Source: Nannocystis bainbridge (lineage in GTDB: Bacteria; Myxococcota_A; Polyangia; Nannocystales; Nannocystaceae). Taken from it: a stretch of 64,000 bases of DNA. The stretch's first letter is position 1. Every line of letters starts with the position of its first letter. A model generated the notes under the pieces. It was not told the origin of the DNA, ran no database searches, and saw nothing but the letters and a program-made list of their open reading frames with translations. Made by a program: the position numbers and the translations under genes. Shown here one piece after another: positions 6,953-63,658 of this stretch. The stretch is taken from contig NZ_JAQNDL010000002.1 in NCBI RefSeq assembly GCF_028368995.1, positions 545,724 through 609,723 of the forward strand. The letters are read 5' to 3'.

Positions 6953-7024
6953 GGCCTGTCCCCGCGGACAGGTGCGAGAGGGCATGTCCTGGCGGGCATG
7001 TTCTTGAGGGCAGGTGCCCGAGGG

Positions 7025-8164: not shown

Positions 8165-8230
8165 GGCTTCGCGGCGGCGACGGGTCGTGAGGCGAGGTAT
8201 CGGGGGCGCGTGCTCCGCTAGTTCGGCTCT

Positions 8231-27800: not shown

Positions 27801-27902
27801 GAGGTGCGGCGGGAGTGATGGAGGAGGGGGCGGGAGCGGGGGAGCGGCGGCGGGGACGATGCCCGCGGGCGTGTCGGCGGTGGGCGGAGCGTCGGGGGCT
27901 GC

Positions 27903-28060
27903 GCTGTCGGACATGTCTTCGGGGACATGTTCGGAGGGGCCGGTGGGTGTGGTGGTCGTTTCGGACATGTCTTCGGGGACATGTACGGAAGGACCGGTCG
28001 GTGCGGCGGACTTGGCGGACATGTCTGGGGAGACATGTGCGGAGGGACCGGTGGGCTGCC
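27903..28060 (+). repeat. ~54-bp tandem repeat x3, each unit carrying a double hairpin GGACATGTCTTCGGGGACATGTWCGG
   Basis: tcggacatgtcttcggggacatgttcgg... / tcggacatgtcttcggggacatgtacgg... / ggacatgtctggggagacatgtgcgg. It lies between the divergent PAP2 gene (-) and the gene starting near 28370 (+). Confidence 0.85.
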
Positions 28061-28369
28061 AGGCGCCGAGTGACTCGCGAGTCGGGGCCAGCGCGGTCCG
28101 GGCGGGGACGAGCGGGTGGGCGGCGGCCGGCGAGGCGGTCAAGACCACGAGCAGGGCGGAGAGCAGGCGGCGCGGCATCGCGGGTCGGCCGAGTATGCCC
28201 GGTCGCGGCGGGACCGGGCAGCCGCGAGATGGTCTTCGGGACAGGTGAACCCATGCGGTCCGCGGCGAGGAGTGGCGGCTCGGGGGATTCGCGGGCGAAG
28301 CACGATGTTTGCGTCGATCGCGCGCGGCTGGCGGCGGGCGCACGCGTCGCGGTAGATTGCGTCTCTGGC

Positions 28370-31959: not shown

Positions 31960-32240
31960 TGTCGGAGTCACTGGCGAACGTGATGGAGCAGGGCCTCGCG
32001 GCGCGAGGATGACGACGCCCGCGGACGGCCCGTTGCGTGGAGTTCACGGCGAACTGGTGGAGAAACCGGCGAGGGCGTCAGAGTCGTGGCTCGAGCCGCG
32101 GCTGCGATGATGACCACGCCGCAGACGACGGGCGTGGGGCCCAGGGCGAGCTCGGGAGAAACCGGCGAGGGCGACGGATTCGCGGCTCGAGCTGCGGCTG
32201 CGATGACGACGACTCCGCAGACGACGGGCGTGGCCCAGGT
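31960..32240 (+). repeat. ~97-bp tandem direct repeat (about 2.5 copies) in the intergenic region upstream of the LysM gene
   Basis: gagaaaccggcgagggcgtcagagtcgtggctcgagccgcggctgcgatgatgaccacgccgcagacgacgggcgtgg is repeated with minor changes. ORF 32037..32297 is its translation artefact. Confidence 0.8.
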
Positions 32241-33135: not shown

Positions 33136-36100
33136 ATGACGCGGTGGGTCGACACGATCGATAAGCGTGAGGTCCCGCGCCAGACCGCTGGCCGGCTGAC
33201 CTGGAGCGACCTCGACGATCTGCGCACGCCCGGACGGGCGCTGTCGGAGGACCTCGTGGCCTACGCGGTCGAGGATTTCTTGGGGGTCAAGCAGGATCGC
33301 GTGACGTGGGTCCGGCCGATCCTTCCGGTGCCGGACGGCGCGCTCGACGTCGACGATCACGCTGCGCCGCGGCTGACCTGTCGCGTGCTTTGCCACGGTC
33401 ACTACAGCTTGCTGGTGCTCGATCGCCACACGGGCGAATTGCTGCACCTCGATACGGCCAACCGGAATCACAACAACGCCCAGGCCGAGGCGCTGGTCGG
33501 CGGTGGGGGGCGGATCACGCACGCGGCGTGGGTGCCGAAGCAGCAGTCGGGGAGCAACAATTGCGGGCCGATGGTGGCGCTGATGCTGGCGGCGATCGCC
33601 GGGACCGACGGCGCGCCCGCCAACGTCCGCCGGGCGATCACGGGCGGGGTCTCCAACGACGCGGCGGAGCGGCTGCGCCGGGCGCTGCTCGATCACTTCA
33701 AGCCGATGTTCGTCGAGGACGACGAGGACGACGACGGCGCGCTCGAGGATGAGGCGCGGGGCGAGGCGCCGCGCGAGAGCTCCGGTGAGCCGCCGCCGGT
33801 GCTGTTGGACGAGGCGCCGGGCGAGATCGTCGACGACGTCGCGGAGGAGGACGAGCCGGGTGAGCCGCCGCCGGTGCTGTTGGACGATGCGCCGGACGAG
33901 ATCGTCGACGACGTCGCGGAGGAGGACGAGCCGGGTGAGCCGGTCGCCGAGGAGATCGACGTGGTGGTCGCGCGCGCGCCGTGGCTGCCGCCGGCGATCG
34001 ACTACGCGGGGTTCGTCGATCTGCGGCCGGTGCCGCCAGTGCCCGAGTCGTCGAACGTGCACGACGTGCCGCGCAGCGAGCACGCGGCGGAGGTCCGCTC
34101 GACGCACGCGCGCTCGCGCCTGCAGCTGGAGGCGCTCTACCTCGAGGACGCGGACGGGCAGCGCTCGCGGGCGTACCGCTACCCCGCCGACGTCGATCAC
34201 GCCGCGCCGGCGGAGGATCAGCGGTTCGCGTTCCGGGTCGACGATCCGGCGCCGCAGTCGATCCGCTGGCGGATCCGTCACGCGAAGCCGCTGCGGCGCG
34301 GGGTGCTCGAGCTGTTCGTGGCCGGTCGCGCCGAGCCGGTGTGGTCGCGCGCGCTGTCGGCGGAGGAGCTCCGAACCTCGCCCGGGGGCGAGCGCAGCGA
34401 CGGCAGCACGGTCGAGGGCGGGCTCGCGTGGACGGGCAGCTTCGCCGGCGGGGCGCCGGCAGACGGCCGGGTCCGCGCCGGCGAATCGCCGTACAAGCTC
34501 AAGCTGACGATCTTCAGCAAGACCGGCGCGGTGGTGGCGAAGCGGCAGGCGTGGACGTACTTCGACGTCCCGTATCAACACAAGTACGCGCTGCTGAGCT
34601 ACGTGCCGAGCACCGAGTTCGGCTGCTTCGGCGTCCGCTTCGATCCGGCGCGGGCGCGGCTCGACGTGTTCATCGACGCGATGTTCGCGTTCCTGCCGGT
34701 GACGCCGGTCGAGGCGGCGTGGGATCCGGGTCGCAAGGCGGAGATCGTCGCCAATTATCCGCGACGGATCCACGCCGACTGGAGCGGGCACTACGATCTG
34801 AGCTGCGACGGGGTCCGGGCCGCGCCGGTCATCGTCTTGAGCGGGCGGCACGTCCAGGACCTGCCCGCGATGGAGGGCACGGACAACCCGCTCAGCGTCG
34901 AACCGGCGCTGGTGCGCCGCATGGACCGGGACTCGCTCCACTTCTTCGCGTGGTTCCGCGACGGGATCGGGCGCTCGGGGCTGATGCTCCACCCGCTCAG
35001 CGCGAGCGTGAATCTGTTCGCGCCCTCGGCCTTCGACGAGGATCAAGCGAGCATGATGCTCAGCAGTCCGACGATCCGCGAGGACCTGCAACGGGCGCAG
35101 CGGAGCGTGCTCGAAGCGCTGCGCGAGGACGCGGGCTTCGCCGCGACCGGGGCTCGCATCGAGGTGCTCGATGAAGGCAGGCCCGACGCGCGGCCGCGGA
35201 TCGTGCTGCCGTTCGCGTCCAGGGTCGAGGAGCTCGATCCGGCGACGCACCGGGTCGCGCTCGACCGCCTGGTGACGGTGCTCAACGCGATCCGCGGCGA
35301 GCTCAACACCGACGTGCCGGTGTTCGTGACCGGCTGCATGAAGCGGAGCGAGCGCAGCAAGCTGCTGCGGCGACAGCACCACGACCGGGAGCGCGCGGCG
35401 CACGTGTCGGCGTACTTGCGCCGCGAGGGCGGGCTGGCGGCGCCAGCGTACCCCGAGGGGGCGACGGCGCGGCAGATGGTCGCGGGGCGCGGCTACGTGG
35501 TGCAGGCGAAGGACGGTCAGATCCGCGAGCAGGGCGGCGTCGAGATCGAGATCGGTTACACCGACGACGCCGAGTACTCGCAGGTGATGGTCGGGCGGAC
35601 GGCCTACTGCGCGCTCGTCCACGAATTCGGGCACATGCTGGGGATCCCCGACGAGTACATGACGTACGAGTTCGACACGTCGACCTGCAGCATCGCTTCG
35701 AGCCAGCCGCGGCTGCGGGAGATGTGCCTCGACAAGGGGATCGCGGCGCCGGAGTTCCCCCGCGAGGGCGCGAACCTGTTCCACGCGGCGTTGATGTCGG
35801 CGGGGGTGCGGTTCTACGAGCGCTACTACCTGACGATCGCCGAGGCGGTGGAGAAGGCGACGACGCTGGCGATGGGGGCGCCGCGGCGGTGGGACATCGG
35901 CGCGAACGAGACGGTGGCCGAGGCGACCGACGAGGCGTTTCACCAGCGGTACGACCATTTCGGGTTGATCGAGGCGCTGCACAGGGCGCGGCGGGCGGTG
36001 CAGCGGCACGAGGTGGCGCCGGTGCGGCTCCTGGCGTCGATCCGGCGGAAGATCCTGCGGACCGTCGCGGGGGCCAGGATCGCGTATCTGCGGGTGGTCA

Positions 36101-38478: not shown

Positions 38479-38572
38479 ACGACATGTCTCATGGGACATG
38501 CCTACAATGACATATCGTGAATGACATGTCGTGGAGAGCATGTCCACAAGGACATGCTCTTCGGGGCAGCCT
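38478..38572 (+). repeat. cluster of GACATGTC-type hairpin elements between convergent genes
   Basis: gacatgtctcatgggacatgcc ... atgacatatcgtgaatgacatgtcgtggagagcatgtccacaaggacatgctcttcgggg. Confidence 0.8.
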
Positions 38573-39469: not shown

Positions 39470-41317
39470 TCACGGCGCGGGCACGGGCTCGGCCCCGAGG
39501 TCGCGGGCGAGGTCGGCGAGCTCGCCGATGGGGACCTGCAGGGCGGGCAGGCGGGTGATGTCGGTCCGCGCGGCCTGGGCGATGGTCTCGCTGGCGCGCA
39601 TGACGAGGCCGCCGTGGGGATCGGCGACCACGGTGTAGCCGGCCTTGCGCAGGCGGGTGAGGCGAGCCTGGGCCGAGGGCGAGAGGTCGGTGGCGGTGAT
39701 GCGCAGGGAGGGCACGCGGCCGGGCCAGATGGCGGCGAGGTAGGCGGTGATCCGCGGGGGGTAGACGACGCCGCCGGCTGTCTTTTCGTTCAGGTGAACG
39801 TCGACCAGAGCGGGGTAGCCGCTGACGTCGCAGCGCACGGCGCCGTGGAGGTGGCTGGTCCACATGGCCTCGGGGCTGACAGGCGCGGGCCACAGGCCGT
39901 CGAACCACGCGGCGATGGCGTCGTAGCTGGGCAGGCGCTGGCCGCCGAGGGCGTCGCCGAGGCGCTGGACCTCGGCGCCGAACCGCTCGCCGCGCTCCTC
40001 ACGACGCAGGCGCAGGAAGATCGCAAGCACGGCGATCGCCGCGGCGAGGTACCACAGGCCGAACAGCAGCAGGCCGCCGCAGACGATGGCGACGAACAGC
40101 AGGCCGAGGCCGCCGCCCTGGACCTGCTGCTGGCGCCGCTCGTCGGCGTGGCGGGCCAGGAGGGCGCGGCGGGCCACGGCGAGGGCGCTGGCGGGGATCC
40201 GCCCCTCGGGCTCGGGTTCGGCGGCGTCGGGCCGGTCGGGGAGGATCGAGCGGACGGCGGCGAAGAGGGCGTGGGTGGCGACGGCGGGCTGGCCGTCGGC
40301 AGGCTCGCGCACGGCGGCGACGAGCAGCGGGGCCTCGGCCAGGCCGCCGGGCGGAGGGGCGAGCGCCGCGGTCTGGGCGGGCGCGCTCTGGCTGGCGCCA
40401 GGGCGGTTGTAGAGGATGGAGAGCAGCGAGGAGTTCGAGGGGTTGATCGCGGCGCCGGGGAGGGTGTCGCTGGCGCTGGTGCGAGCGGTCGGGTCGCGCG
40501 CGAGGCTGGCCCCGAAGACAGGTGCGTCGGCGGGCGCGGGCAGCGGGCCGGACAGGACGGCGGGGTCGAGGCGGGCGGCGGGATCGGGATCGGTGTCGGG
40601 GCCGGAGATGTCCGCAGGGACAGGTGGGGGCGGGAGGCCGGCGGGCAGGGTCTGCGCGGCGATGGGGATGTCCGCGGGGACAGGTTGGATGTCCGCGGGG
40701 ACAGGTGAGATGTCCACGAGGACAGGTGAATACGAGCTGTCTGCGGGGACATGTGAGATGTCCGCGGGGACATGTGAGATGTCCTCGGGGACAGGTGCGT
40801 CGGCGGCAGCACGTTCGCGGACGGCGTGCTCGGCGGCGGCGGGCCGGGGGCCGGGCGGGCGGCCGGGGCGTGAGCCGGGCTGGACGGCGGCGGCCGGGCC
40901 CTGCAGGGTGTCGCCGGGGTGGGGCGGGGCTTCGCCGGCGAGGTCGATGTCCTTGAGGACAGGTCGCACCGGGGCGGGGTCGGCAGGGGCGGGGGCGGGG
41001 CCGATCGAGAGCAGGGTGGTCGGCGGGACGGGCGCGGCGAGCAGGCTGGCGGCGAGCCCGGGCTGGTGGCGCACGCGGACCGGCGCGGCGAACTCGAGGT
41101 CGGGATCAGGGCTGTCTTTGGGGACAGGTGACCCCTGGACCAGGTCGCGCACGGCCTGCTGGATGGCCCGCTCGTAGAGGGCGAGGGCGTCGGCGACGGC
41201 CGGCGGCAGCCCATGCGATCGAGCGCACGCGGGGCAGTCAGCGGCGCCGCGGATGTCGTCGAGCGAGAGCGCGTGCTGACAGTGCGGGCAGCGCAACGCG
41301 AGGGTCGGAGAGAGCAC
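39470..41317 (-). CDS. zinc-ribbon / Pro-rich linker / single-TM / C-terminal domain protein
   Basis: CPHCQHALSLDDIRGAADCPACARSH (CxxC...CxxC), TM LGLLFVAIVCGGLLLFGLWYLAAAIAVLAIF. The linker contains PEDISHVPADISHVPADSSY, encoded by the hairpin repeats at 40600-40810. Confidence 0.65.
   Translation of the reverse strand: MLSPTLALRCPHCQHALSLDDIRGAADCPACARSHGLPPAVADALALYERAIQQAVRDLVQGSPVPKDSPDPDLEFAAPVRVRHQPGLAASLLAAPVPPTTLLSIGPAPAPADPAPVRPVLKDIDLAGEAPPHPGDTLQGPAAAVQPGSRPGRPPGPRPAAAEHAVRERAAADAPVPEDISHVPADISHVPADSSYSPVLVDISPVPADIQPVPADIPIAAQTLPAGLPPPPVPADISGPDTDPDPAARLDPAVLSGPLPAPADAPVFGASLARDPTARTSASDTLPGAAINPSNSSLLSILYNRPGASQSAPAQTAALAPPPGGLAEAPLLVAAVREPADGQPAVATHALFAAVRSILPDRPDAAEPEPEGRIPASALAVARRALLARHADERRQQQVQGGGLGLLFVAIVCGGLLLFGLWYLAAAIAVLAIFLRLRREERGERFGAEVQRLGDALGGQRLPSYDAIAAWFDGLWPAPVSPEAMWTSHLHGAVRCDVSGYPALVDVHLNEKTAGGVVYPPRITAYLAAIWPGRVPSLRITATDLSPSAQARLTRLRKAGYTVVADPHGGLVMRASETIAQAARTDITRLPALQVPIGELADLARDLGAEPVPAP
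40600..40810 (+). repeat. tandem hairpin units GAGATGTCC-NCGGG-GACAKGT (~19 bp, about 8 copies) embedded in frame in a coding linker
   Basis: ggatgtccgcggggacaggtgagatgtccacgaggacaggtgaa...ggggacatgtgagatgtccgcggggacatgtgagatgtcctcggggacaggtg. Confidence 0.85.
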
Positions 41318-42038: not shown

Positions 42039-44792
42039 ATGAGGAGGCGCCGCGCGCGACCGCGGGCGGCGAGCTTTACCGTGCCCGATCTGCCCGTCTC
42101 GCCTCCCTCGCCCCGCGGCCTCGCCCTTCCGGGGGCCGCCACTTCCTTCGCGCCGCTCGTCGACGAGCGGCTGGCCAACGGCGCCCGCCTGCTGATCCTG
42201 CCGGGCCGCCCGACCGGCTCCGGGCCGGCGGCGGTGCAGCTATGGGTCGGCTCGGGCACGGCGGCCGAGCGCCCGGACGAGCACGGCTGCGCCCACCTGC
42301 TCGAGCACATGCTCTTCAAGCCATGTGCTTTGGGACATGGCCCAAAGAGCATCCGCGCGCGCCTGGCCGCGGCCGGGCTGCGGCGCGCCGAGGAGGCGCT
42401 CGACCTGGCGGGGGCGATCGAGGCGCTCGGCGGCGACATCAACGCGTTCACCAGCCACGACGAGACGGTGGTGCACGTGACGGCGCCGGCGGCCCGCGCG
42501 GCCGAGGCGGCGGCGATCATCTCGGCGGCGGCGCTGTTCCCGACGCTGGACCCGGCCACGCTGGCGCAGGAGCGCGAGGTGGTGATCGAGGAGATCAAGC
42601 AGTACGACGACGATCCGGGCCAGCGGGTGACGCAGGCGGCGCTGTCGCGGGTGTACGGGGCGCACGCGTACGCGCGGCCGGTGCTGGGGCTCGAGGCGGA
42701 GGTCGCGGGGCACACGGCGGCGCGGCTGCGTGGGTATCACCGGCGGGCTTACGCGGGTGAGCGGCTGACGCTGGTGGCGGTCGGGCCGGTCGACGTGGCG
42801 GCGCTGCGCAAGGTGGCGCGGGCGATCGTCGGGGCGGTGCCGGCAGCCAAGGCGCGCGCGTCGGCGGGCGAGCCGGGGGTCAAGCCGGGGGTGACGCTGC
42901 GCCGGGCCGAGGTCCAGGAGACCTACGCGCTGCTGGCCTGGCCGGCGCCGGAGGCCGGGGCGGCGGAGGCGGCGGCGATCGACGCGGCGTCAGTGGTGCT
43001 CGGCAACGGCGAGTCGTCGCGCCTGGTCGCCGAGACTCGGCGCAAAGACCAGGTCGTCTCGGACATCCAGGCCCACTGCGACTCGCTGCGCCACGGCGGG
43101 ACGGTGATGGTGTCGGCGCGCACGACCGCGAAGCAGACGACGGCGGCGGTGACGGCGGTGCTGGCCCAGGTGCGGCGGCTGGCGGACGCGGCGGTGTCGG
43201 CGGAGGAGCTGGCGCGGGCCAAGGCGATCCTCGAGAGCGACCTGGTCTATCGGCGCGAGACGGTGCAGGGCCAGGCGCACGCGCTCGGGGCCTGCGCGAC
43301 GCTGTTCGGCGATCTGGCCCGCGAGCGCGAGTACTACGCGGCCCTGGCGGCGCTGACCCCCGAGGCGGTCCGCTCGGCCTGCGCGCGCTGGCTCGACCCG
43401 GCGCGCGCGTGCGTCAGCCTCGAGCTGCCGCGCGCGGAGGTGGATGTAGCGACGGCCAAATCCCTGAAGGCCGCCGTGAGCGAGGCGCTGAAGCCGGCGC
43501 CGGCGCGGGCGCGCGGCGGGGTGACGCCGAAGCGGGCCAGCGACGGGATCGAGACGGTGACGCTGTCGAGCGGGCTGCGCCTGCTGGCGCGGGTCGAGCC
43601 GGCGGTGCCGGTGGCGGCGGGCTGGCTGATCTGGCCGGGCGGGCTGCGGCGCGAGCCGGCGGCGCTGGCCGGGGCGAACTCGCAGATCGCGGCGCTGCTG
43701 ACCCGCGGCAACGCGCGCACCAGCGGCGAGGCGCTGAGCCAGGCGATCGACGGCATGGCGGCGGGGCTCGACGGGTTCGCCGGCCGCAACAGTCTGGGCC
43801 TGCATTTCGAGTGCCTGGCGCGCCACTTCCCGGCGGTGCTCGGGCACGCGCTCGATTGCGCGACGACGCCGAAGTTCGCGGCCGAGGAGCTCGAGGAGGA
43901 GCGCCGGGTGGCGCTGCAAGACCTGGCGTCCGAGGTCGACGATCCGGGCCAGGTGGCCAGCCGCGGGCTGGCCGCGATCCTCTACGGCGAGCACCCGTTC
44001 AGCCGCCCGGGCCGCGGGACGCCGGCGGGGCTGCGGGCGCTGACGCCGGCCAAGCTGCGCGGGCTGTGGCGCCGCGACTACCCGATCGGGCAGGCGGTGC
44101 TGGCCCTGGCCGGCGACATCGACGTGGCGGCGGCGGCGGCCCAGGTCGAGGCGGCGCTGCGCGAGGCTGGCCTTCAGGACAGGCTGTCCTCGGGGCCAGG
44201 TGCGCTCAAGAAGTTCGGCGCGCCGACCGGGCCGCGCGAGCGCGAGATCTTCCAGGACCGCGAGCAGGCCCACATCGCCCTCGGGTGGCCGGGGATCGCT
44301 GTCGGCGATCCGCGCGAGCCGACGCTCGACGTGCTCAGCGCGGTGCTCGGCGGGCAGACCGGGCGGCTGTTCACGGCGCTGCGCGAGGTCCAGGGGCTGG
44401 TGTACGAGGTGTCGATGAGCAGCGTCGAGGGCCTCGACGCCGGCCACGTGGCGATCCACGCGTCGACGAGCCAGGACAAGCTGCCGAAGGCGCTGGCCGC
44501 GATCGCGGCGGAGGTCGAGCGCGCGATGCGAGAGCCGCCGACGGCGGCGGAGGTCGAGCGCGCCAAGGCGTGGCTGGTCGGCCAGTTCGAGCTGGGGCAG
44601 CAGCGCCGCAGCCGGATGGCGTCGCTGCTGGCGCTGTCCGAGGTCTACGGGCTGCCGCGCGCGCGGGCGTTCGCGTACCCGCAGCGGGTGGGGGCGGTGA
44701 CGACAGACGGGGTGTGGGCATTGGCCCGGACGCTGTTCCGCCCGCAATGGGCGGCGCGCTGCGTGGTCCGGGCGCGCCGGCGCAAGGGCTGA
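42039..44792 (+). CDS. two-unit M16-family (pitrilysin/insulinase-like) zinc peptidase
   Basis: Inverted zincin motif HGCAHLLEHMLFK (HxxEH), N-terminal FAPLVDERLANGARLLILPG, and a second inactive M16 repeat downstream. Alternative in-frame starts at 42015 and 41613. Confidence 0.8.
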   Translation: MRRRRARPRAASFTVPDLPVSPPSPRGLALPGAATSFAPLVDERLANGARLLILPGRPTGSGPAAVQLWVGSGTAAERPDEHGCAHLLEHMLFKPCALGHGPKSIRARLAAAGLRRAEEALDLAGAIEALGGDINAFTSHDETVVHVTAPAARAAEAAAIISAAALFPTLDPATLAQEREVVIEEIKQYDDDPGQRVTQAALSRVYGAHAYARPVLGLEAEVAGHTAARLRGYHRRAYAGERLTLVAVGPVDVAALRKVARAIVGAVPAAKARASAGEPGVKPGVTLRRAEVQETYALLAWPAPEAGAAEAAAIDAASVVLGNGESSRLVAETRRKDQVVSDIQAHCDSLRHGGTVMVSARTTAKQTTAAVTAVLAQVRRLADAAVSAEELARAKAILESDLVYRRETVQGQAHALGACATLFGDLAREREYYAALAALTPEAVRSACARWLDPARACVSLELPRAEVDVATAKSLKAAVSEALKPAPARARGGVTPKRASDGIETVTLSSGLRLLARVEPAVPVAAGWLIWPGGLRREPAALAGANSQIAALLTRGNARTSGEALSQAIDGMAAGLDGFAGRNSLGLHFECLARHFPAVLGHALDCATTPKFAAEELEEERRVALQDLASEVDDPGQVASRGLAAILYGEHPFSRPGRGTPAGLRALTPAKLRGLWRRDYPIGQAVLALAGDIDVAAAAAQVEAALREAGLQDRLSSGPGALKKFGAPTGPREREIFQDREQAHIALGWPGIAVGDPREPTLDVLSAVLGGQTGRLFTALREVQGLVYEVSMSSVEGLDAGHVAIHASTSQDKLPKALAAIAAEVERAMREPPTAAEVERAKAWLVGQFELGQQRRSRMASLLALSEVYGLPRARAFAYPQRVGAVTTDGVWALARTLFRPQWAARCVVRARRRKG

Positions 44793-44799
44793 GAGGCCA

Positions 44800-45060
44800 G
44801 GGTGAGGGGCCTGTCCTTCGGGACAGGCGGGGCGCGGTGCGGACGGGGGCATGGGATGTCCCGAAGGACATGTCCTTCGGGATGAGACGCGGCGACGCTG
44901 GTGAGAGCGCGGGATGTCCCGGAGGACATGCTCTTGGGGACATTGTCAATAGTCACCGGCGTGGGATGTCCCGGAGGACATGTCCCTCAAGACATGCACG
45001 GGCCGGCGAGTCCGTGGTGGCGCGCGGACAAGCATGTCCCTCAGGACATGTCCTCAGGGC
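44800..45060 (+). repeat. BIME-like cluster of palindromic elements (core GGACATGTCC; 24-bp perfect palindrome TCCCGAAGGACATGTCCTTCGGGA)
   Basis: ggcctgtccttcgggacagg; gggatgtcccgaaggacatgtccttcgggatg; gggatgtcccggaggacatgctcttggggacat; gggatgtcccggaggacatgtccctcaagacatg; gcatgtccctcaggacatgtcctcagg. Confidence 0.9.
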
Positions 45061-45269
45061 CAGTCGTCGAGATCGAGGCCGCGGGACAGCTCGGGGTCGT
45101 CGGCCAGGAGGTCGCGCAGGGTCGCCTCGCGCAGGCCGAGGGCGCGGGCGCCGGCGCTCACGCTGGCCTGGGCGGCGAGCACGGCCCGGACCTCGCGGCG
45201 GAAGGCGAGCGGGTCGGTGCGGCGCAGGGCCAGCAGCAGCGGTTCACGAGGCTCGGCGGGCAAGGTCAC
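45054..45269 (-). CDS. possible small Fis-like HTH protein (71 aa)
   Basis: LAAQASVSAGARALGLREATLRDLLADDPEL resembles a Fis-type HTH. It could be a GC-driven spurious ORF. Confidence 0.25.
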   Translation of the reverse strand: MTLPAEPREPLLLALRRTDPLAFRREVRAVLAAQASVSAGARALGLREATLRDLLADDPELSRGLDLDDWP

Positions 45270-45323
45270 GCGCGAGGACTGTAGCGCTTGTCGTGGCGCG
45301 GGCGGGCGTGTTCAATGGGCGCG

Positions 45324-45950
45324 ATGCCAGGACGACGGGCCGACGCGTGGATCTTGCTGGGGCTGCTGCTGGGCGGGTGCGACCCGAAAGCGCAGAGAGA
45401 GCTGGAGGCGGCGCGGGAAGAGCTGGCGGCGATGTCGACGCGGCTGCGAGACCGCGGGCTCGAGATCGAGGCGCTGACGGTCGAGCTCGACAAGGTCCGG
45501 GCGGCCCGCGCAGCGTGCGAGACGGAGCGGGCCAGGCCGGTGGAGACCGACGGTGCGCCGCCCGCCGAGGCCCCGCCGGCGGGCGAGCCGCCGCCCGCGG
45601 GAGAGGCGACGCTGACGCCGATCTGCACCGACGGGGTGTGCGTGGTGAAGCGGGGCGAGATCGAGGCGTTCCTGGCCAGGCCGGAGGCGGTGGTCCGGAT
45701 GGCGCGCGTGATCCCGGCGATCGAAGCGGGCAATTCGGTCGGCTTCAAGCTGTTCGCGATCCGTCCCGAGTCGCCGCTGGCCCTGGTGGGGTTTAAAAAT
45801 GGGGACCTGGTGCGCACGGTGGGGGGGCAGGAGGTCCATGACATGGAGGCGATGCTGCGCGCCTATACGCAGCTGCGCACGCTCGACCGCTGGACGTTCA
45901 CCGGCACGCGCAAGAGCGGGCCGTTCGAGGTGACGATCGTGGTCCAGTGA
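45324..45950 (+). CDS. lipoprotein with coiled coil and C-terminal PDZ-like domain
   Basis: MPGRRADAWILLGLLLGGC, coiled-coil ELEAAREELAAMSTRLRDRGLEIEALTVELDKVRAAR, and AIEAGNSVGFKLFAIRPESPLALVGFKNGDLVRTVGGQEV. Confidence 0.6.
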   Translation: MPGRRADAWILLGLLLGGCDPKAQRELEAAREELAAMSTRLRDRGLEIEALTVELDKVRAARAACETERARPVETDGAPPAEAPPAGEPPPAGEATLTPICTDGVCVVKRGEIEAFLARPEAVVRMARVIPAIEAGNSVGFKLFAIRPESPLALVGFKNGDLVRTVGGQEVHDMEAMLRAYTQLRTLDRWTFTGTRKSGPFEVTIVVQ

Positions 45951-45986
45951 TGTCCAAAAGGACAGGCTGGCTGTTCGCAGGGACAG

Positions 45987-46214
45987 TCACCGGGCGTCGG
46001 GGTCGAACTGGAACACGGCCTCGAGCGGGACGGCGAACACGAGGGCGATCCGGAACGCGACCTCGAGCGAGGGGGCATACTTGCCGCCCTCGATGGCGTT
46101 GACGGTCTGACGACTGACGCCGATCCGCTCGGCCAGCTCCTGCTGGGTCATCTCGCCGCGCTCGAAGCGGAGCTGGCGGATCCGGTTTTTGACGCTGCCG
46201 CGCGCGGGCTCCAC
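45987..46214 (-). CDS. XRE-family helix-turn-helix transcriptional regulator (~76 aa)
   Basis: IRQLRFERGEMTQQELAERIGVSRQTVNAIEGGKYAPSLEVAFRIALVF. GTG start lies 2 nt after the stop of the upstream membrane-protein gene. Confidence 0.65.
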   Translation of the reverse strand: MEPARGSVKNRIRQLRFERGEMTQQELAERIGVSRQTVNAIEGGKYAPSLEVAFRIALVFAVPLEAVFQFDPDAR

Positions 46215-46216
46215 GG

Positions 46217-46672
46217 CTAGATCCCGCGCCGGTAGTAGACGAGCTGCAAGCCGAGGCGGGCCAGCTCCGAGAGGTACAGCGAGAGCAGCAGCAGGTGCGC
46301 GACCCACACCGGCTCGACGGCGACGACGAGGGCGCCGATGGCCCCGATGACGCCGGTGGCGAGGATCCAGCCGGTGCGGCTCTCGGCGCGCCACTCGATC
46401 TCGTGGTCGCGGACGTCGGCCGGCTCGGGACGACCGACGAGCGCGGCGACGAGGTGGCCGCCGACGAGGATCGCGACCAGGAGGACGACGGCGACGACGA
46501 ACACGCCGGCGAAGGCGGGCAAGATCGTGATGCCGCTGGCGAGCATCCAGCCGGCGACGACGAAGTAGGCACCCAGGGCGAGGGCGACGCCGACGAGCTG
46601 GATCCAGACGCTGCGCTCCTCGAACGAGGCGCCCGGGCGAGGCTCGCGGGTGACAGCTTGGCTTGACATCAT
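46217..46672 (-). CDS. small multi-TM membrane protein co-transcribed with the XRE regulator
   Basis: MMSSQAVTREPRPGASFEERSVWIQLVGVALALGAYFVVAGWMLASGITILPAFAGVFVVAVVLLVAILVGG..., with 3-4 TM helices. Confidence 0.6.
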   Translation of the reverse strand: MMSSQAVTREPRPGASFEERSVWIQLVGVALALGAYFVVAGWMLASGITILPAFAGVFVVAVVLLVAILVGGHLVAALVGRPEPADVRDHEIEWRAESRTGWILATGVIGAIGALVVAVEPVWVAHLLLLSLYLSELARLGLQLVYYRRGI

Positions 46673-55054: not shown

Positions 55055-55147
55055 GCCGGCGAGCGCGGTGAGCCTTTCGCGGCGACTGCGAAAAAAAATC
55101 GAAGAATTTTGGATCGGGCGGGCGGCCAGCTCACCTATCCCCTTTGC

Positions 55148-55759
55148 ATGAAGACCATCCTGACCGCCTCGCTCTTCGCTGCGTCCCTGGCCTACGGCCA
55201 GCTCCCGGGGCGTGATTCCGACCTGGGCCCGGAGCGCGACGCCGGGTCCGAAGCGCGCCTCCACGCTCCGGAGCCCGCCAGGGCGTCCGCGGAGGCGCCG
55301 CAGGGGAACCAACCCGGCAGCCTCTGCATCATGCCGGGGGTATCCGCGAGCGTGGCGAAGGCCAACCCGGGCACCCAGTACCCTCTGGGCGGAATGAGAC
55401 CGCCCGCCGTGTCATGCCACGACAACAAGGGCAAGCACGCCGTCGGGTACCACTTCAAGCTCTACGTCGGCCCGGGCACCGACTGGCCCGACGCCGTCTG
55501 CAGAGTCGACTACCTCCACAAGCCCGAGGAGCTCACGAGCGCGTGCTGGAACGCCTGCATCGAGCAGAAGAAAGCTTGTTACGCGAAGTTCAGCGGCAAA
55601 AAGGGCAAGCAGCAATGCGATGAGCAACTCATTGCATGCAAGGCCGTCAACGACTCGAAGAAGCACCCGGCCATCCTTCAAGAGCGTTCGAACAGTTTCT
55701 GCAAGCAGCCGGCGCCACCATTCCCGCAGCCGCCGGCGCTCACGGTGACCCCGCCGTAG
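55148..55759 (+). CDS. small secreted Cys/Lys-rich protein in a low-GC segment
   Basis: Signal MKTILTASLFAASLAYGQ, 8 Cys, and a K-rich C-terminal half. A/T-ending codons (aaa, caa, tgt, ttc) are atypical for this genome. An AT-rich leader gcgaaaaaaaatcgaagaattttgg precedes it. Confidence 0.65.
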   Translation: MKTILTASLFAASLAYGQLPGRDSDLGPERDAGSEARLHAPEPARASAEAPQGNQPGSLCIMPGVSASVAKANPGTQYPLGGMRPPAVSCHDNKGKHAVGYHFKLYVGPGTDWPDAVCRVDYLHKPEELTSACWNACIEQKKACYAKFSGKKGKQQCDEQLIACKAVNDSKKHPAILQERSNSFCKQPAPPFPQPPALTVTPP

Positions 55760-56133
55760 AAGCGCGGCCGGGATTTTCGCGCCGCGCTCTGGCCCTGCGG
55801 GTGTGTCGACGCGGCCGACCGCTCGAGCGCGGCCGGCGGCGACGCAGTCCTCGACCTCGCGCGCGATGGCGCTGCCGCCCGCGGCGGTGATCGCGGACAC
55901 GAAGTCCGGGGCTGCCTGTTCGGCCAGGTCTCGTGACGATGGCGATCCGCGGCCGCTCGCTGTCGTCATGGCGAGGCACCGAGAGGCCGCAGGACCCGCC
56001 GCAATACCAAAAGGGGCGAAGATGTGAGCTTGCGCCCTGTCCGTGGCCTGGAGCACGCGGCTCGGGTGGCCACGGAGGACGATGACTGCTGCTTGTCGTC
56101 TCCAGGGCGTTCCCCGTAGGATGCGCCGACCCC

Positions 56134-56421
56134 ATGACAGATGCCGCCCCGCCCGACGCGCTGGTCCGCGAGATCAAGGAGCTCATCATCGAGGCCCTGA
56201 TGCTGCAGGACATGACCCCCGAGGACATCGACCCCGAGGCGCCGCTGCTGGTCGAGGGGCTGGGTCTGGACTCGATCGACGTGCTCGAGCTGGCGATGGC
56301 GATCGGCAAGAAGTACGGCGTCAAGACCCGGGCCGATGACGCGCAGAACCGGCACATCTTCGCCAGCGTGACCAACCTGGCCCGCTTCGTCCAAGAACAG
56401 CGCGCTGCGGCGGCGGGCTGA
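56134..56421 (+). CDS. acyl carrier protein
   Basis: Phosphopantetheine attachment motif LGLDSIDVLEL. 95 aa, acidic. Confidence 0.85.
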   Translation: MTDAAPPDALVREIKELIIEALMLQDMTPEDIDPEAPLLVEGLGLDSIDVLELAMAIGKKYGVKTRADDAQNRHIFASVTNLARFVQEQRAAAAG

Positions 56422-56429
56422 GGCCGGGC

Positions 56430-57080
56430 ATGGCGGACCCTGGTGGCGAGCCGCGGCGAGCCGCGGGGGTCCCGAGGTGGATTCCGGCGGTGCTGCGATC
56501 GATCGTGATCGGCGGCTATCCGCTGGTGGTCTACTTCGGCATGACGCGCTGGAACCCGCGCACGCTGGCGCTGGTGCTCGCGGTCGCGCTGCTGCCGGGG
56601 CTGGTGCTGCGCCTGCGCGAGGCCCGGCGCGAGGACCTGTGGCCGGTGCTGCGGGTGCCGCTGTCGCTGTTCGGGCTGTTCGCCGTGGCGGCGCTGTCGG
56701 GCGAGCAGCGGCTGTTCATGGCCCTGCCGGTGCTGGTCAACCTCGGGCTGCTCGCCAACTTCGCGGCCAGCCTGCGGGGGCCGGTGTCGCTGGTCGAACG
56801 GTTCGCGCGCCTGCAGGAGCCCGAGCTGCCGCCGGGCGGGCCGGCGTACTGCCGCACCTGGACCAAGATCTGGTGCGGGTTCTTCGTCGCCAACGCGGCG
56901 GTCAGCGCCGGCCTGGCGCTGTGGGCCCCGGCGTCGTGGTGGATGCTCTACACCGGGCTTTTGGGGTACCTGCTGATCGGGGTAATGTTCACCGTCGAGT
57001 TCATCGTCCGCAAAGTGACGTTCCGTCGCTTCGGCGACGGGCTGCCCGACCGCCTGCTCCGCCGCTTGCTCCGCGCATGA
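56430..57080 (+). CDS. integral membrane protein (cluster-associated, unknown function)
   Basis: Five to six TM helices. Its stop overlaps the next start (ATGA). Confidence 0.65.
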   Translation: MADPGGEPRRAAGVPRWIPAVLRSIVIGGYPLVVYFGMTRWNPRTLALVLAVALLPGLVLRLREARREDLWPVLRVPLSLFGLFAVAALSGEQRLFMALPVLVNLGLLANFAASLRGPVSLVERFARLQEPELPPGGPAYCRTWTKIWCGFFVANAAVSAGLALWAPASWWMLYTGLLGYLLIGVMFTVEFIVRKVTFRRFGDGLPDRLLRRLLRA

Positions 57081-58999
57081 GGTCCTTCGTCCCGCTCGTC
57101 CACACCGATCCCGCGGCGCCGGTCGCCGTGGGCGAGGCCGTGCGCACGGCGGGCGAGCTGATGCGCGACGCGCGAGCGGTGGCTGCCAGGCTGCCGGCGG
57201 CGACCGCGGGCAGCGAGGTGCTGGTGGTCTGCGGCGATCGCTACCACCTGGCAGTGACGACCCTGGCGGCGTGGCTGCGCGGCCACGCGGTCGCGCTGCC
57301 GCCCAACGCCCAGCCGGCGGCGGTGCGCGCGCTGGCCGGGCGAGCCTCGGTGGTCGCGCTGCTGCACGACTCGGACCTGGCTGACGCGCAGGACGTCCGC
57401 GAGTGGCTCCCGGAGCATGTCCCCGGGGACATGACCGATCCGACATGGCCCGAAGCGCTGGCGGCGGACCGCCGGCTGGCGGTGGTGTACACCTCGGGCA
57501 GCACCGGCGACCACCAGCCGTGCGTCAAGACGGCGGCGCAGCTGCTCGGCGAGGCGCAGACGCTGGCGGCCACGTTCGCGCTGCGGGCCGGCGAGGTGGC
57601 GCTGGCGACGGTGCCGCCGTATCACCTGTACGGGCTGCTGTTCGGGATCCTGGCGCCGCTGGCCGCCGGGGCGGCGTTCGCCCGCGAGACGCCGCTGCAC
57701 GCCGAGACGGTGGCCCACGTGGCGCGTCAGGTGGCGGCGACGGTGCTGGTCAGCACGCCGGCGCACCTGCGCGGGCTGACGGTGCTGCAGCGCGGCGACC
57801 TGCCGCCGCTGTCGCGGGTGTTCTCGTCGGGCGCGCCGCTGCCGCGGGCGACCGCGGACGAGCTGTTGACGGGGCTCGGGCTGCAGGTGACCGAGGTGTA
57901 CGGCTCGTCCGAGACCGGCGGGATCGGCTGGCGTCGGCACGAGGATGTCTCGGGGGACATGTCCCCGGAGACAGCCTGGGCGCCGCTGCCGGGGGTCGCG
58001 GCCGAGGTAGCGAGCGACGGGCGGCTGCTGCTGCGCTCGCCGTTCCTGGCCCCGGACGCGCCGGTGCCGTACCCGTGCGAGGACCGGATCGAGCTCGACG
58101 CGCGCGGCGGGTTCCACCTGCGCGGGCGGCTCGACGGGGTGGTGAAGATCGCCGGCAAGCGGGTGGCGGTCGCCGAGGTCGAGCAGCGGCTGCTGGCGCT
58201 GACGGCGGTGGCCGACGCGGCGGTGGTGGCGGTCGAGTCGCCGGGGGCCCGCGGGCACGAGCTGGTGGCCGCGATCGTGGGCCGCGAGGCCGGGCGCGAC
58301 GCCGGCGAGCTGGTCGCGGAGCTGCGCCGGGCGCTGCTGCCGTGGTTCGACCCGGTGGTGGTGCCGCGGCGGATCAAGGTGGTGCCGGCGCTGCCGCGCG
58401 AGCCGAGCGGGAAGCTGACGCGGCGCAAGCTGCACGCGCTGCTCGGGCTCGACGCGCCAGCGGGCGCGGAGAATGAAGGCACGGCGGCCGGGCGAGGTGG
58501 CGCGAGGGACATGTCCGCGGGGACAGCCAACGAGGCCGCAGGCGGCGTGAAGGACATGTCCTCGGGGACAGCCGCGGCGGGCACGCCGGCGACCGAAGGA
58601 GATGGCGCGAGGGACATGTCCTCCGGGACATCGAGTGAGACCCGCGCGTTCGCGCTGCGCGGGCACGTGCGGCGCGACGACGGCGAGGCTTCGGTGCACG
58701 AGGTCGAGGTCGGGGTGCCGGTCGACCTGGCGTTCTTCCGCGGGCACTTCGAGGGGCGGCCGGTGCTGCCGGGGGTGGCGCAGCTGACGGCGCTGGTGGT
58801 GCCGCAGGTGGCGGCGCTGCGGCCGGAGCTGGGGCGGCTGCGGCGGGCGGCGCGGCTCAAGTTCACCCGGCCGATCGCGCCGGGCGACGCGCTGGTGCTG
58901 CGGCTCGAGGTCCGCGGGACGCAGGTTCGCTTCTCGCTGGCGCGCGCGGGCGAGGTGGTCACGGCGGGCGCGCTCGAGTACGACGCGCGCGGTGGTTGA
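57077..58999 (+). CDS. AMP-dependent synthetase/ligase fused to C-terminal FabZ/FabA-like hotdog dehydratase
   Basis: AMP-binding motif VVYTSGSTGDHQPC and EVYGSSETGG. C-terminal FFRGHFEGRPVLPGVAQLTAL. The interdomain linker carries RDMSAGT/KDMSSGT/RDMSSGT copies of the palindromic element. Confidence 0.8.
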   Translation: MRSFVPLVHTDPAAPVAVGEAVRTAGELMRDARAVAARLPAATAGSEVLVVCGDRYHLAVTTLAAWLRGHAVALPPNAQPAAVRALAGRASVVALLHDSDLADAQDVREWLPEHVPGDMTDPTWPEALAADRRLAVVYTSGSTGDHQPCVKTAAQLLGEAQTLAATFALRAGEVALATVPPYHLYGLLFGILAPLAAGAAFARETPLHAETVAHVARQVAATVLVSTPAHLRGLTVLQRGDLPPLSRVFSSGAPLPRATADELLTGLGLQVTEVYGSSETGGIGWRRHEDVSGDMSPETAWAPLPGVAAEVASDGRLLLRSPFLAPDAPVPYPCEDRIELDARGGFHLRGRLDGVVKIAGKRVAVAEVEQRLLALTAVADAAVVAVESPGARGHELVAAIVGREAGRDAGELVAELRRALLPWFDPVVVPRRIKVVPALPREPSGKLTRRKLHALLGLDAPAGAENEGTAAGRGGARDMSAGTANEAAGGVKDMSSGTAAAGTPATEGDGARDMSSGTSSETRAFALRGHVRRDDGEASVHEVEVGVPVDLAFFRGHFEGRPVLPGVAQLTALVVPQVAALRPELGRLRRAARLKFTRPIAPGDALVLRLEVRGTQVRFSLARAGEVVTAGALEYDARGG

Positions 59000-59027
59000 T
59001 ATGGTCGGAGGGACGGACGAGCGCGAG

Positions 59028-59825
59028 ATGGCCCGAGGGCCAGGTGACGTGTCCGCCGGGACAGCCGCGTTCCGGCCGTGCGCGCTGATCCCGACCTACG
59101 ACAACCCGCGGACGGTGCGCGACGTGGTGCTGCGGGTCAAGGCGCACCTGCCCGCCGTGGTGGTGATCGACGACGGCTCGGGCCCGGAGGGGCGGGCGGC
59201 GGTCGAGGCGATCGGGGCCGAGGGGCTGGCGCACGTGCGCCGGCGGACGCAAAACGGCGGCAAGGGGGCGGCGGTCAAGACCGGGTTCCAGTTCGCCCAC
59301 GAGCTCGGCTACACCCACGCGCTGCAGGTCGACGCCGACGGGCAACATGACCTCGGGGACATCCCGCGCTTCCTCGCGACCGCGCAGGCGCGGCCGGACG
59401 CGCTGGTGCTGGGGGCCCCGGTGTACGACGCCTCGGCGCCGAAGGGCCGGCTCATCGCCCGCAAGATCACCCTGTTCTGGACCGACTTCGAGGCCGGGCG
59501 CGGCGTCATCACCGACCCGATGTGCGGCTTCCGGGTCTACCCGCTGACGCCGGCGCTGGCGCTCGGGCGCACCGGCGACCGCATGGACTTCGACATCGAG
59601 ATCGCGGTGCGGCTGGTGTGGGCCGGGGTGCCGGTGATCAACCTGCCGACGAAGGTCCGCTATATCGGCCGCGACGAGGGCGGGGTGTCGCACTTCCGGG
59701 TGTTCGGCGACAACGTCAAGATCTCGTGGCTGCACACCCGGCTGTCGTTCCAGCGGGTGATGGTGCGCCCGTGGCTCGACCTCTACCGCCGCCTGCGCCG
59801 CCCGGCGCTGCCAGCCGGCCGCTGA
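59028..59825 (+). CDS. family-2 glycosyltransferase
   Basis: CALIPTYDNPRTVRDVVLRV...VVVIDDGSGPEG...QVDADGQHD has the GT2 DxD architecture. Confidence 0.75.
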   Translation: MARGPGDVSAGTAAFRPCALIPTYDNPRTVRDVVLRVKAHLPAVVVIDDGSGPEGRAAVEAIGAEGLAHVRRRTQNGGKGAAVKTGFQFAHELGYTHALQVDADGQHDLGDIPRFLATAQARPDALVLGAPVYDASAPKGRLIARKITLFWTDFEAGRGVITDPMCGFRVYPLTPALALGRTGDRMDFDIEIAVRLVWAGVPVINLPTKVRYIGRDEGGVSHFRVFGDNVKISWLHTRLSFQRVMVRPWLDLYRRLRRPALPAGR

Positions 59826-60083
59826 CCGAGAGGACAGGTTCGATCGGCCATGGCGCAGCAGGCAGGTTTGAAAGGACATGTCCCGGGGGACAGCCGCGAC
59901 GAGGCCGCGAGCGGCGGAGCGGCGGCCGGCGCGGGCGGAGCGAACGGGCGCGGGGCGATGGTCGGCGCGGGCGGCGGGGCAGCGGCCGGTGATGCGAGCG
60001 AGCGCGGGCCGATGGTCGTGGCGAGCGGCGGTGGGGAGAGCCAGGCGGCGGTCGTCGCGGGCGCGGGCGGCGATCGGGCGTGG

Positions 60084-60962
60084 ATGACCCGGCCCGAGCG
60101 CGGGACGGTGCTGGGGATCCGGGCGACGCTGCTGTTCTGCCGGGTGTTCGGGCGCCGCGGGGCGGGGGCGCTGCTGGCGGTGATCACGTTCTACTACGCG
60201 CTGTTCGCCGGGGCCGCGCGCCGGGCCTCGCAGGACTACCTGCGGCGGATCGGCCAGCCGCATGGCTTTTGGGCCAGCTGGCGCCACATCTACACGTTCG
60301 CCCGCTGCGCGCTCGACCGCGTGTTCCTGGTCCGCGGCGAGACCTCGCGGTTCCGCGTGACGCACACGGGCATCGAGCACCTGCGGGCGCTGCAGCAGCA
60401 GGGCAAGGGGGCGCTGCTGCTCGGGGCGCACCTCGGCTCGTTCGAGGCGATGCGGGCCAGCAGCGTCGACAAGCGGCTGCCGATCCACATCCTCGCGTAC
60501 TGGCAGAACGCGAAGATGATCAACGATTTCTTGCGCACCGTCGGGGCCGACTTCGACGTGCGCGTGATCCCGATCGACCCGCGTGACACCAGCTACATCC
60601 TGGCGGCGAAGGAGGCGATCGAGCGGGGCGAGCTGGTGGCCGTGCTCGGCGACCGGGTCGGGGTCAACGACAAGACCTGCACGGCCGACTTCCTGGGCGC
60701 TCCGGCGCGCTTCCCGACCGGGCCGTACACCCTCGCGGCGCTGCTAAAGTGCCCGATTTACTTGACTTTCGGGCTTTACCACGGGCCCGACCGCTACGAT
60801 CTTTATTGCGAGCCCTTCGCCGAACAATTAGAACTGCCCAGAGGCCGCCGCGAGGCCGCCACCGCCGCCCATGTCCAGCGCTACGCCGAACGCCTCGAGC
60901 ACTACTGCCGCCTCGCGCCGCTCAACTGGTTCAACTTCTACGAGTTCTGGAGGGCGGAGTGA
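60084..60962 (+). CDS. LpxL/HtrB-like lipid A biosynthesis (lauroyl) acyltransferase family protein
   Basis: TVLGIRATLLFCRVFGRRGAGALLAVITFYYALF...GALLLGAHLGSFEAM...IHILAYWQNAKMIN. An N-terminal Gly/Ala-rich extension (59850-60083) is probably untranslated. Confidence 0.7.
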   Translation: MTRPERGTVLGIRATLLFCRVFGRRGAGALLAVITFYYALFAGAARRASQDYLRRIGQPHGFWASWRHIYTFARCALDRVFLVRGETSRFRVTHTGIEHLRALQQQGKGALLLGAHLGSFEAMRASSVDKRLPIHILAYWQNAKMINDFLRTVGADFDVRVIPIDPRDTSYILAAKEAIERGELVAVLGDRVGVNDKTCTADFLGAPARFPTGPYTLAALLKCPIYLTFGLYHGPDRYDLYCEPFAEQLELPRGRREAATAAHVQRYAERLEHYCRLAPLNWFNFYEFWRAE

Positions 60963-62889: not shown

Positions 62890-62944
62890 CCCACGCTCCC
62901 GTCTGTCCTTCCGGACAGGTCTTTTCAGACATGTCCTCACGGTC

Positions 62945-63637: not shown

Positions 63638-63658
63638 GGCGGCCTTCCGCACCTGCTC

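Follow-up and report, generated by a model that had tools for sequence, protein, structure and literature searches.

A REP-like palindromic repeat array behind an M16 peptidase gene of Nannocystis bainbridge, with a possible role at transcript 3' ends

The convergent gap behind an M16 (pitrilysin-family) peptidase gene of Nannocystis bainbridge carries an array of short palindromes, which is almost certainly a local accumulation of a lineage-wide repeat that resembles repetitive extragenic palindromes (REPs). The gap lies in a stretch of 64,000 nucleotides from contig NZ_JAQNDL010000002.1 (assembly GCF_028368995.1, positions 545,724 to 609,723), referred to below as the window, and all positions are those of the window unless a locus is named. 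The best overall explanation, to which we give a probability of roughly 0.55, is that of a REP-like array with an architecture similar to that of bacterial interspersed mosaic elements (BIMEs), whose units would serve both convergent genes as hairpins at the 3' ends of their transcripts.

Results

The gap between the stop codons of the M16 peptidase gene and of a convergent gene for a 71-aa protein measures 261 bp (44793-45053) and contains five sites, one single unit and four head-to-tail doublets, that is, nine 14-nt units of the form TGTCC-N4-GGACA (Table 1). The arms of five units are exact, those of two others contain one mismatch and those of the remaining two contain two. The first unit lies 20 nt from the stop codon of the peptidase gene, and the last doublet reaches the stop codon of the opposite gene. 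The original prediction had placed at 44800-45060 a cluster of palindromic elements including a perfect 24-bp palindrome, and both were found again. The palindrome, TCCCGAAGGACATGTCCTTCGGGA at 44859-44882, has 12-nt arms that are 100% complementary and are not separated by any spacer; it is the longest perfect palindrome of the window, where arms of at least 12 nt are expected 0.03 times according to a first-order Markov simulation. Three copies of GGGATGTCCCGRAGGACATG are present, at 44853, 44911 and 44963. On the other hand, the gene that follows immediately is not that of a lipoprotein, as had been assumed, since the 71-aa gene intervenes and the lipoprotein gene (with a weak PDZ match) comes next.

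The linkers between the units, of 32, 24 and 40 nt, are not conserved and have no common motif, and the 49-nt repeat family that can be delimited in the cluster presents 63-73% identity that is restricted to the units. The loops of the two units of doublet 2 (44857-44884) are complementary to each other. In addition, 22 nt of doublet 4 (44967-44988) were found again at 58609-58630, on the minus strand, within a coding linker, and the segment TGTCCTCAGGGCCAgtcgtcga of doublet 5 is kept in N. pusilla, N. radixulma and N. exedens.

When compared with dinucleotide shuffles, the gap is predicted to fold with z = -6.65 on the plus strand and -6.70 on the minus strand. Taken alone, single sites of the gap fold at -11.7 to -18.7 kcal/mol. 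For unit 1, the predicted RNA structure has -16.7 kcal/mol and represents 99% of the ensemble; the values on the plus and minus strands are -18.7 and -17.1 kcal/mol for doublet 2, -17.6 and -12.1 kcal/mol for doublet 3, and -13.8 and -16.6 kcal/mol for doublet 4. A terminator and promoter scan of the region 44000-46200 gave no canonical terminator and no promoter. In Rfam no family reached its gathering score, and the only two matches, spurious ones to miRNA hairpins, had 21-24 bits compared with thresholds of 93-105.

Table 1. Genes and repeat units of the window discussed in the text
Feature	Positions	Strand	Remarks
M16 (pitrilysin-family) peptidase gene	42081-44792	+	Pfam Peptidase_M16 and M16_C
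71-aa gene, convergent	45054-45269	-	Protein end ...DDWP*; from the list of open reading frames (ORFs)
Unit 1, single	44809-44828	.	Core TGTCCTTCGGGACA at 44812-44825; 8-bp stem, UUCG loop on the plus strand
Doublet 2, TGTCCCGAAGGACA + TGTCCTTCGGGAtg	44857-44884	.	Includes the 24-bp perfect palindrome
Doublet 3, TGTCCCGGAGGACA + TGctCTTGGGGACA	44915-44942	.	Second unit degenerate, two arm mismatches
Doublet 4, TGTCCCGGAGGACA + TGTCCCTCAaGACA	44967-44994	.	
Doublet 5, TGTCCCTCAGGACA + TGTCCTCAGGGcCA	45035-45062	.	Second unit (45049-45062) over the stop codon of the 71-aa gene
Intergenic cluster of units	6957-7210	.	Starts 5 nt after a stop codon; includes the 13-nt microsatellite
Two units	38485-38554	.	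In a 97-nt convergent intergenic gap
Seven exact or near-exact in-frame units, gene 39470-41317	40609-40793	-	21-nt period, PVPADI-type heptads
Two units	45951-45985	.	Fill a 36-nt convergent gap between the stops of the PDZ lipoprotein gene and a helix-turn-helix (HTH) gene
Three in-frame RDMSxGT copies, AMP-binding/hotdog protein gene (57077-58999)	58498-58630	+	In the inter-domain linker
Two units, 28 nt apart	62904-62945	.	Between the thioesterase and LolA genes

The repeat of which the cluster is built has the consensus (CA)TGTCC-N4-GGACA(TG), with two invariant arms of 5-7 nt and exactly four free bases between them, and it is often directly abutted by a second unit. The window contains 26 exact units and 26 with one mismatch, compared with about 0.05 exact units expected, a figure calculated from the base-composition expectation of about 51 occurrences of each 5-mer per 64 kb. 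Likewise, TGTCCCGRAGGACATG with up to 3 mismatches has 52 matches in the window versus 0.9 expected. TGTCC/GGACA is the most over-represented 5-mer of the window (172 versus 95.8 expected, z 7.8), with 81 copies of TGTCC and 91 of GGACA on the plus strand, as against about 51 expected for each. Of 27 pairs, 26 have their arms separated by 4 nt, and the 26 N4 pairs together with the 13-nt tandem array account for the excess of half-sites. Therefore, the palindrome and not the single word is the unit of repetition.

The four central bases are free to vary: 36 different loops were found among 50 oriented units and none of them is dominant. Since the outer bases of the loop are complementary in just 21% of the units, compared with about 30% by chance, the unit appears to have a true tetraloop. 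The flanks follow a symmetric consensus, (A)CA...TG(T), which lengthens the palindrome in about 40% of the copies and does not contain any GTAG-type (GTAG/GTGG) head beside the hairpin. Compensated arm variants are rare (about 19 versus 149 exact units), which indicates that the sequence of the arms is kept and not their pairing alone. Most doublets outside the cluster have either unrelated or identical loops, and exact 14-nt duplications represent 4 of the 33 doublets observed in Nannocystis (32 loci, one of them with two doublets). These 32 loci contain 109 exact units in 225 kb, from which thousands of copies per 12-13-Mb genome would be expected.

The position of the units with respect to genes, which were called for these counts by a gene caller based on G+C content at third codon positions (GC3), was analyzed in an unbiased set, formed by the window and the protein-anchored Nannocystis loci, and in the larger set of all Nannocystis loci. 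In the unbiased set, convergent gaps had 6.08 units per kb, and the density was 0.97 per kb between genes of the same direction, 0.12 in divergent gaps and 0.25 within coding sequence; the corresponding values for the larger set were 4.31, 1.23, 0.39 and 0.20 per kb. Convergent and divergent gaps thus differ about 50-fold, and by density (6.1 per kb in convergent gaps against 0.25 per kb in coding sequence) the family is strongly and mainly extragenic. The nearest stop codon lies at a median of about 25 nt from a unit, and 13 of the 41 genes of the window have a unit within 120 nt after their stop.

Clusters other than the one behind the peptidase gene are included in Table 1. The gap after gene 5783-6952 is occupied by a microsatellite, GCATGTCCTCGGA, repeated 13.9 times with 98% identity at 7024-7205, which is built from a degenerate unit and has an intact unit on either side, at 6957 and at 7197. 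Overall, tandem arrays of the repeat have periods of 13 nt (13.9 copies), 21 nt (6 copies) and 54 nt (2.8 copies). The window also contains tandem repeats of long period that are unrelated to the unit, of 54, 99, 96 and 75 nt and about two copies each, in or near large genes (8224-8335, 13052-13291, 32059-32233 and 33784-33942).

Units often abut or overlap gene boundaries, as in the window at 62932-62949 and in loci L059 (7856-7918) and L020 (3780-3807). In some cases the flank ACATGTCC supplies the ATG start, and in this way a glycosyltransferase of N. radixulma begins with MSAGT; in others the stop codon overlaps or directly precedes the unit, such as TGA-TGTCC at 45948 or ...TGGCCCTGA at 45054. 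Together with the in-frame copies described below, these units are a hazard for start-codon annotation and gene calling. Units were also observed between and inside the genes of an aryl-polyene-type biosynthetic cluster that occupies approximately 55100-64000 (compare the gene calls of L058 and L059). It encodes a carrier protein, a fusion of an AMP-ligase with an ApeI-like hotdog domain, a GT2 glycosyltransferase and a lipid A-type acyltransferase, as well as an aromatic ammonia-lyase, a 4HBT thioesterase and LolA-like and MMPL proteins.

Copies inside protein-coding genes occur at about 240 times the density expected by chance. In the gene 39470-41317 of the minus strand, about nine PVPADI-type modules form part of a Pro/Ala-rich linker (in-frame region 40609-41126), and the alignment of orthologues showed that this linker is hypervariable and rich in indels, with 1-9 VPxD modules, with both flanking domains conserved. 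The AMP-binding/hotdog protein is 100% identical to a protein recorded for N. bainbridge. Its linker, in a gene whose in-frame unit region spans 57418-58630, has about 10 aa in distant homologues and reaches 30-100 aa only in the group of N. pusilla, N. punicea, N. exedens and N. bainbridge, where the expanded linkers carry 2-4 RDMSxGT modules. In a third gene (27042-28403, minus strand), a signal peptide is followed by three 18-aa repeats, each with HVPEDMS (27909-28049). In the three proteins checked, the in-frame copies lie in disordered linkers, and the number of modules varies between Nannocystis species.

The peptidase is 93% identical to the 903-aa protein P0001 of N. pusilla, by homology to which the start of its gene was placed. 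The 71-aa protein has no Pfam match and an exact-protein look-up gave no record, and a counterpart of 69-71 aa is called in four other Nannocystis assemblies including those of N. pusilla, N. radixulma and N. exedens (loci with the gene called: L050, L051, L052, L058 and L059). At the M16 locus, a single unit follows the stop in N. pusilla and in N. radixulma, with different loops, and the interval up to the 71-aa gene contains one extra gene (of 142 aa) in the former and three in the latter; a more distant metagenome-assembled genome (MAG) has only degenerate units. No remnant of the 142-aa gene of N. pusilla was detected in the window by tblastn or blastn, so that the cluster was rejected as a relic of that gene, and the gap has no homology to the N. 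pusilla gap. From the single units and additional genes of the relatives and from the lack of any gene trace, it follows that the five-site array is specific to the N. bainbridge lineage. The genes of 141-142 aa that N. pusilla and N. radixulma carry beside unit clusters were also considered as possible mobile genes and discarded, because they are mutually unrelated and do not have a transposase domain.

At a shorter distance, a contig of 99.15% identity, obtained from a sequencing run, retains the cluster, and 7 of its 50 differences fall within the 261 bp of the gap, a divergence about 3.5 times that of the surroundings. No polymorphism in the presence or absence of units was found in the 5.9 kb common to this sister strain. 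In other places the arms persist across species while the loops change: in three species the spacer that separates the thioesterase gene from the LolA gene carries two units at a distance of 28 nt, whose arms are identical and whose first loop is TTCC, GCCA or GTGC depending on the species, and the pair at 45951-45985 has an orthologous pair in N. pusilla with other loops and another spacing. As regards the clustered arrangement itself, the PDZ gene is followed by the HTH gene and a 139-aa gene in N. bainbridge and N. pusilla, and in N. exedens and N. radixulma by a 600-nt convergent gap with five units. This means that the architecture recurs in intergenic clusters elsewhere, a comparison that the original prediction had proposed.

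Differences in gene content coincide with unit clusters in several regions: 44793-45053 and 45951-46636 of the window, L050 (6713-7471), L051 (6710-9645), L058 (1537-2137) and L059 (1521-2144). Units may thus mark hot spots of recombination or of insertion and deletion.

A scan with the doublet pattern over 185,579 species, represented by one genome each, returned 49 loci. Of these, 32 belong to Nannocystis, where five named species (N. punicea, N. pusilla, N. exedens and N. radixulma among them), the strain RBIL2 and several MAGs are represented; a further 14 come from Mesorhizobium and three are strays. All the Nannocystis species sampled have the unit, and seven exact copies were counted in a MAG with an M16 protein of 59% identity. 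No exact or one-mismatch unit was found in the protein-anchored loci of Enhygromyxa salina (13 kb) and Nannocystaceae ST9 (22.8 kb). The family appears to be confined to Nannocystis and its closest relatives. The matches in Mesorhizobium were rejected as members of the same family, since they correspond to a fixed perfect palindrome of 44 nt, CCCCCCTCTGTCCTGCCGGACATGTCCGGCAGGACAGAGGGGGG. They come from several Mesorhizobium species (loci L003, L005, L007, L011, L015, L029, L031, L034, L040, L041, L044, L045, L047 and L049), and their palindrome has only the centre GGACATGTCC in common with the Nannocystis unit. Another locus, L043, from a contig binned in an Acidobacteria MAG, has three tandem TGTCCC(A/G)GCGGACA units at 5130-5175, which belong to a convergent family unless the contig was mis-binned. 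In the literature searched we found nothing on such repeats in Nannocystis or on any REP-type family of myxobacteria, nor any work linking REP-associated tyrosine transposases (RAYTs) or REP doublets forming hairpins (REPINs) with Myxococcota, and this REP-like family has apparently not been described so far.

Discussion

The cluster is an additional member of a well-known class of repeats and not a new kind of system. As for its function, a role as terminator or as stabiliser of transcripts is plausible from its position. For the intergenic copies, a bidirectional 3'-end role is favoured because units are far denser in convergent than in divergent gaps, because stop codons are near and because stable tetraloop hairpins are predicted on both strands. 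According to this explanation, inferred from position and folding, transcripts from either convergent gene would fold into such hairpins right behind the stop codon, and doublets would fold into longer ones. The hairpins could then act as bidirectional barriers, causing termination or pausing independent of a U-tract and protecting the messages against 3'-5' exonucleases, and would insulate the mRNA of the M16 peptidase and that of the 71-aa gene from one another. The arrays would grow and shrink by local duplication and slippage, and the cluster would have expanded in this way in the N. bainbridge lineage.

That this function is the main role of the array is, however, a tentative proposal to which we give somewhat less than even odds, because the constraint is not tied to RNA, there is no U-tract and the coding copies need another explanation. 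Several observations weigh against it. There is no U-tract after the hairpins, and the consensus of the oriented 3' flank is TGTCC, not T-rich, so that no canonical intrinsic terminator can be recognized. Only about one third of the genes of the window carry a unit; in same-direction gaps, units are not significantly skewed to the upstream stop (18 versus 16); and by count 13 of the 26 exact copies of the window lie inside predicted genes, where a 3'-end role makes no sense. Loop composition has no strand asymmetry relative to transcription, and the excess of variants compatible with G-U pairing on the sense strand, 9 versus 5 on the antisense strand, is not significant, which means that nothing ties the constraint specifically to RNA. 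Between the strains of 99% identity, two of the seven cluster differences hit arms, with no sign of constraint at that time scale. A constraint on the arms does show in 33 orthologous pairs of units, some of which are not independent, with differences in 8 of 330 arm positions (2.4%) and in 34-40% of loop and flank positions (45 of 132 and 233 of 578), but this arm conservation is inflated to some extent by the aligner, which anchors on common arms. Lastly, a structural role alone would not need a fixed arm sequence.

The maintenance of the arm sequence across species, and not only of its pairing, implies recognition by a sequence-specific factor, be it a RAYT-like enzyme or a host nucleic-acid-binding protein. 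One alternative, which we regard as less likely than the 3'-end role and still as the strongest competitor, is that the repeat is purely selfish or neutral, has no host function and spreads by hairpin-specific transposition (RAYT-like or other), ectopic gene conversion and slippage. Convergent gaps, operon spacers and disordered linkers would simply be the places that tolerate copies, and the cluster a tolerant spot that filled up. Tolerance alone would produce the avoidance of divergent promoter gaps, and it agrees with copies whose number and position differ between species at the same locus, with the in-frame copies of hypervariable linkers and their lineage-specific expansion, with the microsatellite-like and tandem arrays and the exact duplications among the doublets, with the 22-nt stretch common to the cluster and a coding linker, and with the accelerated decay of the cluster between nearly identical strains; the density of coding copies, in particular, is inexplicable by a 3'-end function. 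However, the almost random loops are unlike those of a faithful copy-paste replicator with a master sequence, and arms that are kept while loops and flanks diverge are unexpected for neutral relics unless they are homogenised. Furthermore, about 0.4 Mb of Nannocystis DNA yielded no candidate for a transposase, and in the 5.9 kb common to the sister strain the units are not polymorphic for presence or absence.

If the palindrome acts as double-stranded DNA, it could be bound by an abundant host protein in dimeric form, for example a nucleoid, topology or roadblock factor at collisions of convergent transcription, with two 5-bp half-sites one helical turn apart and the array as a platform of high occupancy. 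Invariant half-sites at a fixed spacing of 4 bp around a free centre are the classic signature of a dimer operator. What is conserved is the sequence and not the pairing, compensatory variants being few; there is no strand asymmetry, and coding copies keep the arms as well; the density is highest in convergent gaps, where positive supercoils accumulate. Nevertheless, we consider this improbable, since no candidate protein is known, the deficit of complementary outer loop bases is a hint that the loop is truly single-stranded, a site maintained by selection would not usually be present in thousands of copies, many of them in frame in genes, and the slippage arrays suggest extrusion of hairpins. 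An idea of similarly low probability is that the arms are the recognition site of a Nannocystis-specific machinery other than RAYT, either a factor that terminates or insulates without U-tracts or a homogenising enzyme; in the latter form, cleavage and gene conversion would keep thousands of copies alike, with loops swapped and arms preserved. If this were true, peptide modules, VPxD(I/M) and DMSxGT, would be written into linkers as a by-product, and a non-coding repeat would generate variation in protein length.

The likeness to BIMEs and REP sequences put forward by the original prediction stood in part. REP sequences and BIME clusters of E. coli and Salmonella were reportedly described by Stern in 1984 and Gilson in 1991. 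Classical REPs have 35-40 nt, their hairpins protect upstream mRNA in E. coli in spite of lacking U-tracts, and BIMEs are defined by conserved linker motifs, BIME-2 being bound by gyrase and BIME-1 by IHF, with Pol I as a further protein partner. The Nannocystis repeat resembles them as a short, GC-rich palindrome of high copy number, dispersed in the genome and enriched outside genes, with conserved stems, a variable loop and stable hairpins without U-tracts; it is enriched after genes and between convergent ones, and its units stand alone, in pairs or in multi-unit clusters. In contrast, its core has 14 nt (18-20 nt with the flanks) and no sequence similarity to REPs, its arms are perfectly palindromic so that units have no orientation, conserved linker motifs and a GTAG-type head are missing, and about half of the copies are inside genes. 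The array falls short of formal BIME membership because of its unconserved linkers and the missing head. A bona fide BIME of the E. coli type, with alternating REPs, conserved linker motifs and mobilisation by RAYT, is very improbable here: the clustering of palindromes in an intergenic gap, the genome-wide dispersal of the family and one doublet with a REPIN-like long hairpin speak for it, but the linkers differ in length and content with identity restricted to units, the self-complementary arms leave orientation, which only the free loop could carry, undefined, the flank consensus is CA/TG and not of the GTAG type, and many copies lie inside genes. In addition, a phmmer search with the E. 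coli RayT against the 3313 ORFs of all sequences analysed, about 0.4 Mb of which is Nannocystis DNA (less than 4% of one genome), gave no match at E<10.

With the REPIN-RAYT systems of Pseudomonas and enterobacteria, the family shares two-unit doublets that form a longer hairpin, its restriction to a lineage and its vertical persistence. REPIN populations are centred on a master sequence to which loop and spacer belong (Bertels & Rainey 2011, PMC3116915; Nunvar 2010). The Nannocystis loops are instead nearly random, the doublets have no spacer, and no RAYT appeared in the DNA searched.

The copies in genes recall another system, the Rickettsia palindromic elements (RPEs), reportedly described by Ogata in 2000, which have about 100-150 bp and encode 30-50 aa. 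As in RPEs, palindromes are found in frame in protein genes, are tolerated in surface or linker segments and add peptide modules; as distinct from them, the Nannocystis unit adds about 5-7 aa, VPxD(I/M) or DMSxGT, and by density its family is mainly intergenic. The genic copies therefore seem to behave like RPEs, being in-frame palindromic repeats with indels relative to orthologues, without any relationship in sequence or size. The uptake sequences of Neisseria (DNA uptake sequence, DUS) and Haemophilus (uptake signal sequence, USS), which are over-represented as single words, are similar in being an abundant, short and fixed word with inverted pairs of variable centre behind genes, and also in particular frames within genes. 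A DUS-like single-word model was nevertheless rejected, since the excess of half-sites in Nannocystis is due to pairs with the exact 4-nt spacing, and we know of no natural competence in this genus. The I-shaped hairpins, which lack a U-tract, and the terminator motifs repeated in high-GC bacteria, for example the mycobacterial TRIT, which Gardner reportedly described in 2011, come close in being GC-rich hairpins without a U-tail directly after stops, in genomes above 70% GC, as a repeated 3'-end motif. They differ in that the Nannocystis arms are fixed in sequence and that copies also occur inside genes, and termination by such I-shaped hairpins is itself disputed.

The phenomenon remains one more form of the REP/BIME biology that became known in the 1980s. 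To our knowledge, myxobacteria with 12-13-Mb genomes at 72% GC have no recognisable U-tract terminators, and a 14-nt hairpin found behind about one third of the genes is a testable candidate for a signal of transcript ends and of insulation between convergent genes in Nannocystis. The unit could also be used as a marker for strain typing. Finally, given that its clusters coincide with indels of gene content and that copies lie inside a gene of the aryl-polyene type, the repeat may drive plasticity of the local genome and of protein linkers in this genus.

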